Source: a virus (lineage: Duplodnaviria > Caudoviricetes). From it: DNA of 55,238 nucleotides. The notes below the pieces were generated by a model that worked only from the letters and a program-made list of their open reading frames with translations, was not told the origin of the DNA and searched no databases. The stretch lies in IMG/VR virus record IMGVR_UViG_3300043436_001540, positions 1 to 55,238 of that record, one strand, 5' to 3'. Position 1 is the stretch's first letter, and each line of letters begins with the position of its first letter. Of this stretch, positions 2,064 through 3,829 are shown one piece after another. The translations under genes were made by a program, and so were the position numbers.

Positions 2064-3494
2064 TTAGTAGGCGTAGCGATCGTTCATAAGAGTCTTCACC
2101 ATTACATTGTAAGGAGTGAAGTCTTCAAGGTCGTTCGCAAGAACGCTCTTCATGATGGCTGGGCTGAACCCAGATACATGAGCAGTACCACGCTCGTCGA
2201 AACGAACTGGAGTGTTGCCATCTGCTTTACCGTACATGGAAACGTTCCAGAAGACAATCTTCGGCACATTGTAGCCTGCATCGTTGTACTTACGCTTGAT
2301 CATCTGCATAGCAGAGTCATCATACTTAGTGCAAGAGTCAAACTGCATGTCAGACAGAATCAACAGCATCTGAGGCATGTCACTCTCTGCAACGTTACCC
2401 TTGATAGCGACCTTGAGGATCTCATCAAAAGCAGCGTGCAGATTGGTATTCATCTGCCACTCAGCACGGCTCATCTGAGTCATCTTCTGAGACAGAGTCC
2501 CTTTCAGATGTTCAAACTTAGGCTTACCGGAGAAGGTCAGGAACAGATCCTTAAACGCACTGGTGTTCTTATCAGCACAATACAGACCCAGAGAGACTGC
2601 AATGTCGATAGGCTGCAATTCACTTCCACGAGTGTAGTGAACAGAACCCATAGAACCGGAGACGTCGACCATAGGCATGATCTTAGCATCGCCGATGTAG
2701 TTAGGCAGAGCCTTCCACTGTTCATCAGCAACAGCTGCATTACCCTTCACGACAGACTTCACGACATCGTACGGATAGACCGCACCAGCGTTGATCTTGA
2801 CCTTGGGATCTGCACGCTCAGCAACCGGCTTTTTCAGTTCAGCAATGTAAGCAGAGTATGCTTCCTTTGCGTTACGGCCGAAAGCCTTCTGGTAGCGAGC
2901 GGATGCCACGGAAGGAACGTGAGAGAAGTTGATAGCTTCCCACTCTTTAGCACACATCTTAGACTCAACAACGTTGGTCAAACTAACGATGAGCTTACGA
3001 TACTGTTTCGGAGTAAGTTCAAAGAACTTAGTCAATTCAACAGCAACTGGACCTTTACGTGGCATCCACTTCGCACAGAGACCGTCCTGGTTTGCTAGCG
3101 CTTCACGAATAAACGCAAACGCCTTACGACGGTTGAGAGGATCTTTGTAAGTGAACAAGTCATCCCAACGGCCAAGCTCTGGAACTTTGTGCATCAGCTT
3201 ACCAGCAAGAGTTGGGTCGGTGGACTCAAGCGCAGCAAGCAAGTTACGGAAGGTAGCACGTTCGCCAGCACCTCCGCGAATGTCACGAGCCCAGAGCAGC
3301 ATACGGATAGTCAGATCAAGGTTCTCAGTCATAGAAGCTACGAACTGCTTGGAGATATCAGAACCACGAGCGGAACCAATAACACCGAACAAGTCGAGCA
3401 CCTTGGACTTAGAAGTAGCATTCGCCTTCATACCATTTGCGGTACGAGCAGGCTTAGAGTTGTTAGCATTTTTAACTGCGTTTACAAAAGACAT
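2064..3494 (-). CDS. Ro60/TROVE-related vWA-domain protein (DUF2828-type)
   Basis: N-terminal RDIRGGAGER, ELGRWDDL and AKWMPR motifs; C-terminal vWA MIDAS DVSGSM...ILSDMQFD, IVFWNV, VSGFSP. Confidence 0.85.
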   Translation of the reverse strand: MSFVNAVKNANNSKPARTANGMKANATSKSKVLDLFGVIGSARGSDISKQFVASMTENLDLTIRMLLWARDIRGGAGERATFRNLLAALESTDPTLAGKLMHKVPELGRWDDLFTYKDPLNRRKAFAFIREALANQDGLCAKWMPRKGPVAVELTKFFELTPKQYRKLIVSLTNVVESKMCAKEWEAINFSHVPSVASARYQKAFGRNAKEAYSAYIAELKKPVAERADPKVKINAGAVYPYDVVKSVVKGNAAVADEQWKALPNYIGDAKIMPMVDVSGSMGSVHYTRGSELQPIDIAVSLGLYCADKNTSAFKDLFLTFSGKPKFEHLKGTLSQKMTQMSRAEWQMNTNLHAAFDEILKVAIKGNVAESDMPQMLLILSDMQFDSCTKYDDSAMQMIKRKYNDAGYNVPKIVFWNVSMYGKADGNTPVRFDERGTAHVSGFSPAIMKSVLANDLEDFTPYNVMVKTLMNDRYAY

Positions 3495-3506
3495 AATATT
3501 TCCTTT

Positions 3507-3593
3507 CAGGTTGGATTTACGGATTCGAACCGTTAAGTTTGTTTTTCATACAAATTGGGAACCATTCCCGGGTTTAGTTGCTGAAACCAACCT
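3507..3593 (-). ncRNA. Y-RNA-like copy 3 (D-like, anticodon-GAA-like and T arms)
   Basis: AGGTTGGTTTCAGCAA...GGGAATGGTTCCC, TTTGT-ATGAAAA-ACAAA, ACGGTTCGAATCCGT...TCCAACCTG; no CCA; abuts the RBS of the Ro-like gene. Confidence 0.7.
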
Positions 3594-3611
3594 ATGGTTT
3601 CATAGTTTAAT

Positions 3612-3687
3612 CAGGATCGCGCCTTTCGGCTTTCCGTTTGATTACAAGTCAAATGCTCTATGAGCTTTAAGATGCTGTAACGATCCT
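3612..3687 (-). ncRNA. Y-RNA-like copy 4 (D-like arm, Thr-TGT anticodon arm, GAAA hairpin)
   Basis: AGGATCGTTACAGCA...GCTCATAGAGC, TTTGA-CTTGTAA-TCAAA, GCCGAAAGGC...CGATCCTG. Confidence 0.7.
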
Positions 3688-3755
3688 ATATTACTTCGTT
3701 CACATCGAATAATAGTAGTATAATACATAAAGAAACAGATGTCAACAATTATTTT

Positions 3756-3829
3756 TGGATGCCCGTCGAGGATTCGAACCGCGATTACTAGGGTCAGAGC
3801 CTAGCGTCCTACCGTTAGACGAACGGGCA
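3756..3829 (-). tRNA. tRNA-Gln(CTG)
   Basis: CTAGG-CTCTGAC-CCTAG, CCA. Confidence 0.9.

Follow-up and report, generated by a model that had tools for sequence, protein, structure and literature searches.

Tandem non-chargeable tRNA mimics upstream of a phage Ro-like gene share a closing stem and a CAGCA core with RNA modules of many phages and are probable Y-RNA-like partners of the Ro-like protein

The stretch of DNA analysed here, referred to as the window, comprises the 55,238 nucleotides of IMG/VR record IMGVR_UViG_3300043436_001540 (Duplodnaviria; Caudoviricetes), a fragment estimated to be 32% complete. Positions 3688-3507 of its minus strand contain two tandem tRNA-like modules, M1 (3688-3612) and M2 (3594-3507), located between a strong promoter-like site and the ATG codon of a gene encoding a 476-residue Ro-like protein. 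Two additional modules, M3 and M4, are present elsewhere on the same strand. An earlier note on positions 3507-3687 had counted three copies of an anticodon-arm mimic in this region; two full modules and one short hairpin between them were found instead, M3 and M4 lying outside the region. The proximity of the last copy to the ribosome binding site of the Ro-like gene was borne out, as the 3' end of M2 is located 4 nucleotides ahead of the GGA of this site. The features of the locus are as follows.

3745-3717, minus strand: promoter-like site (TTGACA, 17-nt spacer, TATACT) with 11 of 12 consensus matches; relatives also have a -35/-10 pair of this kind 5' of the modules
3688-3612, minus strand: M1 (covariance model, 31.0 bits, E 1.1e-4; consensus fold)
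3688-3681 and 3619-3612, minus strand: closing stem of M1, UAGGAUCG/CGAUCCUG, 8 bp
3677-3673, minus strand: CAGCA of M1, in the context UUA-CAGCA
3665-3655, minus strand: D-like hairpin of M1, GCUC-AUA-GAGC
3653-3637, minus strand: anticodon-like arm of M1, UUUGA-CUUGUAA-UCAAA, with the loop CUUGUAA at 3648-3642
3630-3621, minus strand: GNRA hairpin of M1, GCC-GAAA-GGC
3601-3583, minus strand: inter-module hairpin, GAAACCA-UAGGU-UGGUUUC (82 of 82 cells paired; one pair changed on both sides in 3 cells)
3594-3507, minus strand: M2 (covariance model, 30.2 bits, E 1.7e-4; closing stem and three hairpins by RNAalifold)
3594-3587 and 3514-3507, minus strand: closing stem of M2, UAGGUUGG/CCAACCUG, 8 bp
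3583-3579, minus strand: CAGCA of M2, in the context UUU-CAGCA
3569-3557, minus strand: D-like hairpin of M2, GGGAA-UGG-UUCCC, with a UGG loop
3554-3538, minus strand: anticodon-like arm of M2, UUUGU-AUGAAAA-ACAAA, with the loop AUGAAAA at 3549-3543
3533-3519, minus strand: T arm of M2, ACGG-UUCGAAU-CCGU
3503-3501, minus strand: GGA of the ribosome binding site; ATG at 3494-3492
2064-3494, minus strand: Ro-like gene (476 residues; DUF2828 and DUF7788; phrog_850, 'RNA-binding protein')
2041-1931, minus strand: M3, directly 3' of the Ro-like open reading frame (ORF) (covariance model, 28.2 bits, E 4.5e-4)
806-741, minus strand: M4, short type, between tRNA-Ser (812-899) and tRNA-Ala (591-666) (47.5 bits; part of the model's training set)

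The modules are framed by an 8-bp closing stem, UAGGNNNN/NNNNCCUG, the 5' strand of which is followed by the single-stranded stretch NNN-CAGCA(A) and then by an insert of variable content. The core motif CAGCA is unpaired and begins 3 nt downstream of the closing-stem 5' strand. A shared CAGCA stem substituting for the acceptor stem, as proposed in the earlier note, was therefore not retained: the actual closing stem has 8 bp and lies 3 nt away from this motif. Both anticodon arms exist as written in that note, on the minus strand and preceded by D-like hairpins, and each displays the canonical combination of 5 bp, a 7-nt loop, U33, and a purine at position 37. In M1 and M2 the arms follow a tRNA-like order, with a D-like arm, an anticodon-like arm, and then a T arm (M2) or a GNRA hairpin (M1). 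RNAalifold predicted for the M2 type a four-way junction of the closing stem, a D-like hairpin (conserved AUGG/UGG loop), the anticodon-type arm, and the T arm, with compensatory changes in 9 of 20 pairs. For the M1 type, the closing stem, the anticodon-type arm, and the GNRA hairpin were predicted, with compensatory changes in 4 of 16 pairs. M3 has the same closing stem and CAGCA core and an insert composed, in this order, of a hairpin, a T arm (AUGGG-UUCGAGU-CCCAU), an acceptor-like hairpin, and a D arm (GAUC-AAUGGUA-GAUC) containing GG.

The core was searched for in 112 homologous loci (595 kb, some contigs being fetched twice with different flanks) with a detector requiring CAGCA, a stem of at least 7 bp, and a CUG end. 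This led to 209 modules on the strand of the Ro-like gene versus 5 on the other strand; there were 169 unique modules, with 62 different 7-nt stems. The 5' signature AGN5-N3-CAGCA, for which pairing was not required, was present at 208 sites on the gene strand versus 28 on the other strand, and 173 of the 208 had a 7-bp partner within 200 nt, compared to a mean of 64 when the downstream sequences were swapped among sites. Five of the eight stem pairs were altered on both sides among 42 short modules, for which the covariation score was 0.544, compared to 0.114 in shuffles (none of 500 as high), and collapsed once the stem partner was slid. Since the detector demands pairing, the 100% pairing of these 42 modules holds by construction, and the strand and swap controls carry the weight. 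In distant homologues (42-60% protein identity) the frame was reduced to UAGG....NNN-CAGCAA....CCUG, with inner stem bases that differ yet are complementary, and the insert was nearly empty or consisted of one hairpin, again with the loop CUUGUAA.

An Infernal covariance model, R1, was built from 41 short modules of other phages and M4 of the window. In the 55-kb window it detected exactly four sites, M1 to M4, the next match scoring 11.3 bits (E 2.9). All 105 matches obtained in 80 loci at E ≤ 0.01 were on the gene strand, as were all 14 matches obtained at E ≤ 1 in 12 GenBank loci, where they were spread over 8 loci. In five complete phage genomes, 12 matches were found in four genomes, all on the strand of the Ro-like gene, nine of them within 0.6 kb of this gene and three at a distance of 6-9 kb (BUCT-ZZ01); the mycobacteriophage genome had none at E ≤ 0.1. 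At least one module was present in 71 of 77 loci, 134 modules being upstream, 19 downstream, and one inside the gene. The module ended 13-57 nt before the ATG in 48 of the 77 loci, mostly 13-28 nt. The modules thus occupy the position expected of Y RNAs, beside the protein gene and on the same strand.

The core recurs on the gene strand beside homologous genes in phages of Proteobacteria, Firmicutes, Actinobacteria, and Cyanobacteria. By eye, three frames were seen in tandem beside the homologous gene of Listeria phage AG20, three beside that of Synechococcus phage BUCT-ZZ01, and three downstream of the gene of mycobacteriophage AvadaKedavra, one of them with a T arm. In Bacillus, Enterococcus, and Klebsiella phages, AAG/CUU replaces AGG/CCU in the frame. 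In phage wV8, tRNA genes follow just downstream of the Ro-like gene 47, and among them the model detected two CAGCA modules, each in a gap without annotation: one separates tRNA-Glu from tRNA-Met, the other tRNA-Met from tRNA-Asn. Within locus L030 they occupy 2418-2485 and 2584-2643. Vibrio phages of the KVP40 type carry a sole motif, GACAUU-NNA-CAGCA-(ribosome binding site)-AAUGUC, with the start codon within the 3' strand. This motif is invariant in four phages (L029 = KVP40, 655-700; L120, L121, and L122) while its flanks vary, its stem displays no covariation, and it looks like a translational operator. A blastn search with positions 3400-3800 of the window had no match in GenBank phages, and Rfam 15 contains no family for the CAGCA modules. 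No description of them was found in the literature, although the tables of phage YrlA loci in PMC4201824, a source available in part, may include some of these phages. The CAGCA modules form a large family of modular RNAs that mimic tRNA and are associated with phage Ro-like proteins, a family that has apparently not been catalogued.

ARAGORN identified 25 tRNAs in the window and called none in 3507-3688. Rfam detected no tRNA in the M1/M2 region at the gathering score; at E ≤ 10, the sole match was tRNA (RF00005) over 3587-3674, in M1, at 21.8 bits versus a cut-off of 29, and M2 had no tRNA match. The closing stem departs from a canonical acceptor stem, since NNN-CAGCA(A) (5' side) and an A-rich linker (3' side) intervene between it and the arms. 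No CCA is encoded after the CCUG of the modules, whereas CCA is present in the four of four true array tRNAs that were printed, in agreement with the earlier description of the mimics as non-chargeable. The reported lack of a tRNA-Thr(UGU) gene was also confirmed with ARAGORN, the only tRNA-Thr of the window being GGU. A further tRNA, at 5155-5075 (minus strand), has a long variable arm and reads GUA (Tyr) in the anticodon loop CUGUAAC; it was missed by ARAGORN and found by Rfam (33.5 bits), which brings the tRNA genes of the array from 25 to 26.

The inserts of the 169 unique modules contain recognizable parts of tRNAs. Hairpins with a 5-bp stem peaked at a loop of 7 nt (116, versus 41-51 for loops of 5, 6, or 8 nt). 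An anticodon-type loop (5 bp; U at position 2 and purine at position 6) was present in 55 modules, compared to 5.25 expected from shuffled inserts, and T loops (UUCGAUU, UUCGAAU, UUCAAUU, and similar) in 30, compared to 0.3 expected; the latter were found on 16 different stems. The sequence CUUGUAA was flanked by five perfect pairs in 19 of its 22 occurrences, on 5 different stems. The general form CU-NNN-AA was so flanked in 41 of 115 occurrences (13 different stems) and the reversed pattern in none of 43. These figures uphold the view of the earlier note that the arms are mimics and not decayed pseudogenes. The commonest 'anticodons' among the 55 anticodon-type hairpins were UGU (19) and UUU (5). 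The sequence UAAUCA occupied positions 36-41 in 13 of the 55, including 10 of the 19 with UGU. M1 reads UAAUCA at these positions, which is the site sequence U36AAUC/A41 reported for cleavage by AriB of PARIS in the available part of PMC12409363; M2 differs, reading AAAACA. At the same positions, the phage tRNA-Lys(UUU) of the window (5829-5754, minus strand) has UAAUCG, which differs at position 41 from the AriB-sensitive UAAUCA, and the phage tRNA-Asn(GUU) (1247-1172, minus strand) has UAAUCA.

Conservation of the loops as anticodons had been set as a test of mimicry, and the outcome was different for the two modules. Of 26 loci, the 16 with a protein identity of at least 80%, or with partial copies of such proteins, were aligned as close loci. 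M1 was present in 14 of these 16, with the loop CUUGUAA in 13 and CUCGUAA in one, both of which would read Thr. Short modules of more distant phages, with a protein identity of only about 55%, again have the loop CUUGUAA. In M2, 19 of 103 columns varied across seven orthologues and the three 'anticodon' positions were among the most variable. The loops were AUGAAAA, CUUGUAA, CUUGAAAA, CUAUUAA, CUUAUAA, CUUGAAA, and AUAUAAA, with U33, A37, and A38 fixed. Thus, the loop behaves as a conserved anticodon in M1 but not in M2, and neither the near-invariance of the former nor the variability of the latter fits a decaying pseudogene. The M2 'anticodon' (window 3549-3543; L001, L003, L004, L005, L013, and L037) appears as a hypervariable-looking patch in an otherwise nearly fixed 88-nt module.

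The inter-module hairpin (3601-3583) is an additional conserved pairing. Its 3' strand overlaps the inner closing stem of M2, the linker, and the first C of CAGCA, and its pairing survives changes in two lineages (loci L002/L012 and L011). It may be an alternative conformer, acting as a folding intermediate or a switch. A smaller hairpin between M1 and M2, CUAUG-AAAC-CAUAG, is broken in loci L009, L011, and L015 and was rejected in favour of the overlapping GAAACCA/UGGUUUC. Between the predicted transcription start and M1, a leader hairpin, UUCG-AUGUGAA-CGAA (3709-3695, minus strand), is kept in loci L002 to L008 but not in L001. The leader sequence GNNCGAAG (3701-3694) was considered as a YrlA motif and discarded owing to wrong spacing and lack of conservation in locus L001.

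The Ro-like protein matched DUF7788 (6.4e-48) and DUF2828 (1.5e-18) in Pfam and was assigned to phrog_850, 'RNA-binding protein', in PHROGs. The DxSxS motif (D277, S279, and S281), which we take to be the start of the vWA metal site, was invariant in 17 sequences. In the ESM-Atlas, its own families being excluded, 26 of the 30 nearest clusters were TROVE and vWA_Ro60, at 0.92-0.93. Homologues with less than 60% identity were found in at least 711 GenBank phage records, a single match covering at least 80% of the protein in 709. Thousands of metagenomic proteins also belong to the family. Carriers of phrog_850 include Felix O1-like, KVP40-like, Listeria P100/A511-like, and mycobacteriophage groups, and records of mycobacteriophages label the homologue 'Ro-like RNA binding protein'. 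A total of 251 Felixounavirus-type records contain the gene, and the product of wV8 gene 47 is 40.5% identical to the window protein.

The comparison of this locus with known systems draws on the available parts of the cited papers. Y RNAs flank the Ro60 genes of bacteria and of some phages. Their effector module imitates three parts of tRNA, namely the T arm, the D arm, and the acceptor stem, and several Y RNAs may be processed from one precursor upstream of the Ro60 gene (PMC4201824). In YrlA, the motif GNCGAA(N0-1)G on the 5' strand marks the protein-binding part (PMC4201824). The CAGCA modules resemble YrlA and Yrn, the partners of Ro60 (Rsr), in that small RNAs are located beside, and often upstream of, a gene whose product is an RNA-binding protein of the ring type. 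A closing stem with a conserved internal-loop motif, a tRNA-like module, and several RNAs per locus are also common to both. M3, unlike M1 and M2, further shares with YrlA the permuted arrangement in which the T arm comes first and is followed by the acceptor hairpin and the D arm. The differences are that NNN-CAGCA(A) after UAGGNNNN stands in the place of the GNCGAA motif, and that the Ro-binding stem of YrlA takes the place of the anticodon-type arm displayed by M1 and M2. The partner of YrlA is a TROVE/Ro60 protein whereas that of the modules is a DUF2828/DUF7788 protein without Pfam TROVE. The match of M3 to Rfam YrlA (RF02553) reached 33.2 bits (1.4-kb search, E 4.8e-5), short of the gathering score, which is 69; M1 and M2 had no match to this family at E ≤ 10. 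Thermus phage phiLo provides a second comparison, since Yrl1 and Yrl2 are located upstream of the phage Ro60 gene, each with a 5'-3' stem flanking a CGAA bulge, and both bind Ro60 and host PNPase (PMC12135203). As in the window, a phage Ro-type protein is associated with two tandem RNA genes directly upstream, and the ribonucleoprotein is proposed to hijack a host RNA enzyme; compared by description only, phiLo differs by its CGAA bulge and its recognizable Ro60 homologue. A survey of jumbo phages also reports that a few phages encode a TROVE protein accompanied by 'a tRNA-like partner' (PMC7824862). The Ro60-like protein gp130 of phage Bas63, encoded directly upstream of Felixounavirus tRNA genes, counters the ppl defence, and the authors of that study suggested that some of the annotated Felixounavirus 'tRNA genes' may be Y RNAs (10.1101/2024.10.10.617714). 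From the genus and the gene order, gp130 presumably belongs to the same family as the window protein. No RNA is named in the available part of the Bas63 study, and the candidate modules of wV8 are located in unannotated gaps between tRNA genes. Overall, the modules, which score below the Rfam thresholds for tRNA and YrlA, are closest to Y RNAs.

Since the closing stem and the CAGCA core are shared by hundreds of modules beside Ro-like genes, a ribonucleoprotein of the Ro/Y-RNA type has to be considered first. On the basis of this comparative analysis, we regard it as probable that M1 and M2, together with M3 and M4, are the RNA partners of the adjacent Ro-like protein, as Y RNAs are of Ro60; they are possibly translational operators as well. 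Because the architecture is that of Y RNAs, the closing stem and the CAGCA internal loop would be the candidate protein-binding site, replacing the stem and CGAA bulge of known Y RNAs, and the inserts would be tRNA mimics. As effector modules, the latter would recruit tRNA-binding host enzymes or be mistaken for tRNA, a host exoribonuclease or tRNA-binding enzymes being the targets suggested by analogy. The modules would be transcribed from the leader of the Ro-like gene and as part of the tRNA-array transcript, and would be freed by tRNA-type processing. As the start codon is preceded at a distance of 13-28 nt by the end of a module in most loci, the Ro-like protein could, through the same binding, repress its own translation. 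Autoregulation, which the earlier note had raised, thus gains support from position.

Several observations weigh against a Y-RNA-like partnership. CAGCA differs from the GNCGAA/CGAA motif of known Y RNAs, so that the role assigned to it as a binding site rests on analogy. The gp130 protein of Bas63, expressed alone from a plasmid, rescued plaquing of T7 on a ppl strain (10.1101/2024.10.10.617714, available in part), indicating that at least one activity of the protein family needs no phage module. A six-frame search of the window had no match to Pfam TROVE (PF05731) at E ≤ 10, the N-terminal 270 residues alone reached 0.87 to TROVE clusters in the ESM-Atlas, a value that provides a lead only, and Protein Data Bank searches with the protein sequence and a 17-row profile gave chance-level matches and no solved chain. 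Among the 12 GenBank loci, model R1 detected no module at E ≤ 1 in KVP40, Ci1, phiAS5, and Alsa_4, and the complete pairing of the 42 short modules is uninformative, these rows having been picked by pairing. Finally, positions 3484-3692 are covered by contigs of three metatranscriptome runs (three studies), two of them showing no difference, which is compatible with transcription of the modules but does not prove it, as such contigs may contain DNA and do not reveal RNA ends. Parts of the ORF were uncovered in some runs, and differences in depth between the RNA genes and the ORF are not interpretable.

Four other explanations were weighed against these data. The modules could be decoys or sponges for tRNA-targeting immune nucleases or tRNA-modifying enzymes, acting with or without the Ro-like protein. 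As an account of the sequences this appears unlikely, and it is compatible with a Y-RNA-like role, not opposed to it. It draws on the sensitive form of the AriB site, UAAUCA, in M1 and in the other anticodon-type hairpins counted above, on the fact that the commonest 'anticodons', UGU and UUU, are those of the two prime AriB targets, and on the M2 loop, in which the anticodon letters vary around fixed U33, A37, and A38. A protein of the Ro-like kind also counters a defence system in Bas63, and tRNA-Thr(UGU) is the target preferred by P2 OLD as well (PMC12445682). The M1 stem, however, lacks the CNG motif and falls outside the OLD rule given in the available part of the same paper. Phage T5 escapes AriB by means of variant tRNAs (PMC12409363). 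Phage tRNAs that replace those cut by AriB or OLD are likewise encoded in phage tRNA arrays and have Thr(UGU)- or Lys(UUU)-type anticodon stem-loops, but in the available accounts they are chargeable and resistant to cleavage (PMC12409363; PMC12445682), whereas M1 has no acceptor end or CCA and keeps the sensitive-type UAAUCA. Further difficulties are that a strict anticodon-type hairpin is missing from 114 of the 169 modules, that the modules share descent and the counts are therefore not independent events, and that the ppl defence, against which the Bas63 protein was sufficient on its own, is not known to act on tRNA. The notion that the modules are remnants of tRNA genes, decayed to pseudogenes within a tRNA array, is extremely improbable and is already contradicted by the comparative data. 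The modules do lie within a same-strand array of 25-26 tRNA genes and M1 has its weak Rfam tRNA match, but a non-tRNA core conserved across phages of four bacterial phyla and tied to one protein gene, compensatory changes in all helices, and a nearly invariant M1 loop would not be expected of such remnants.

The modules might instead be leaders that act only in cis, serving as translational operators for the Ro-like protein or another factor and having no function in trans. The operators of T4 RegA, gp32, and gp43 are structured sites beside or over the ribosome binding site of the binder's own gene, and the modules are alike in position. The module ends close to the ATG in 48 of 77 loci, the 4-nt distance between M2 and the GGA, the inter-module hairpin, which could switch M2 on or off, and the invariant KVP40-type motif, which encloses the ribosome binding site and contains the AUG in its 3' strand, are all in keeping with this. 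We nevertheless consider a purely cis-acting role quite unlikely. Unlike T4-type operators, copies are also found far from start codons, either 3' of the gene or between tRNA genes with no ORF behind them (M3, M4, wV8, and KP13-26), and the three BUCT-ZZ01 sites are located 6-9 kb from the Ro-like gene. Tandem copies and elaborate inserts with large tRNA-like domains (T, D, and anticodon) would be superfluous for an operator, and the KVP40-type stem has no covariation and is missed by the model. Very unlikely, too, is a role limited to processing or punctuation, in which the modules would be tRNA-like handles for RNase P, RNase Z, or RNase E on a polycistronic transcript and have no later function. 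To our knowledge, neither single-stranded CAGCA nor a fixed UAGG/CCUG stem is a determinant for any of these enzymes. Such a role would leave the tie to the Ro-like gene unexplained and the diversity of the inserts superfluous, although modules are interleaved with tRNAs (M4 in the window and the wV8 gaps) and YrlA of M. smegmatis is cut by RNase P (PMC4201824, available in part).

If the modules are indeed Y-RNA-like partners, they might form the RNA half of a widespread phage counter-defence ribonucleoprotein, the arms of which bait, sponge, or sense tRNA-targeting nucleases. This extension is tentative and its probability low. The Ro-like ring would hold non-chargeable mimics such as M1, a host-type Thr(UGU) stem-loop with the AriB site UAAUCA, and the rapid change of the M2 'anticodon' would reflect an arms race. 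The papers found name no partner RNA for phrog_850 proteins, and the module signature, which combines sequence and structure, predicts such partners together with a candidate binding site. It likewise reveals that phages present pieces of tRNA separately on a common scaffold, as an anticodon arm, a T-D elbow, or an acceptor-like hairpin. The role of Ro-type proteins in phage infection, and that of tRNA mimics, beyond spare tRNAs, against tRNA-directed immunity, can now be addressed.

A further class of modules was observed in six loci (L058 2246-2344, L066 2288-2384, L068 2201-2296, L061 2277-2393, L065 636-750, and L059 2296-2414). It contains a hairpin with a 9-nt loop, of the type GUGAG-UUUCGAGUU-CUCAC, followed by UAAAUCAAAAAGUAGAAA, and is unlike any tRNA arm. 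Elsewhere in the window, a scan of ten large ORFs revealed replication and nucleotide-metabolism genes and no RNA ligase among those ten. The ORF directly downstream of M3 (1890-1444, minus strand) is staphylococcal-nuclease-like (Pfam SNase, 3.3e-11; phrog_452, endonuclease). The ORF at 45819-44869 (minus strand) matched phrog_842, beta-glucosyl-HMC-alpha-glucosyltransferase (3.3e-49), which hints at glucosylated hydroxymethylcytosine in the DNA of the phage.

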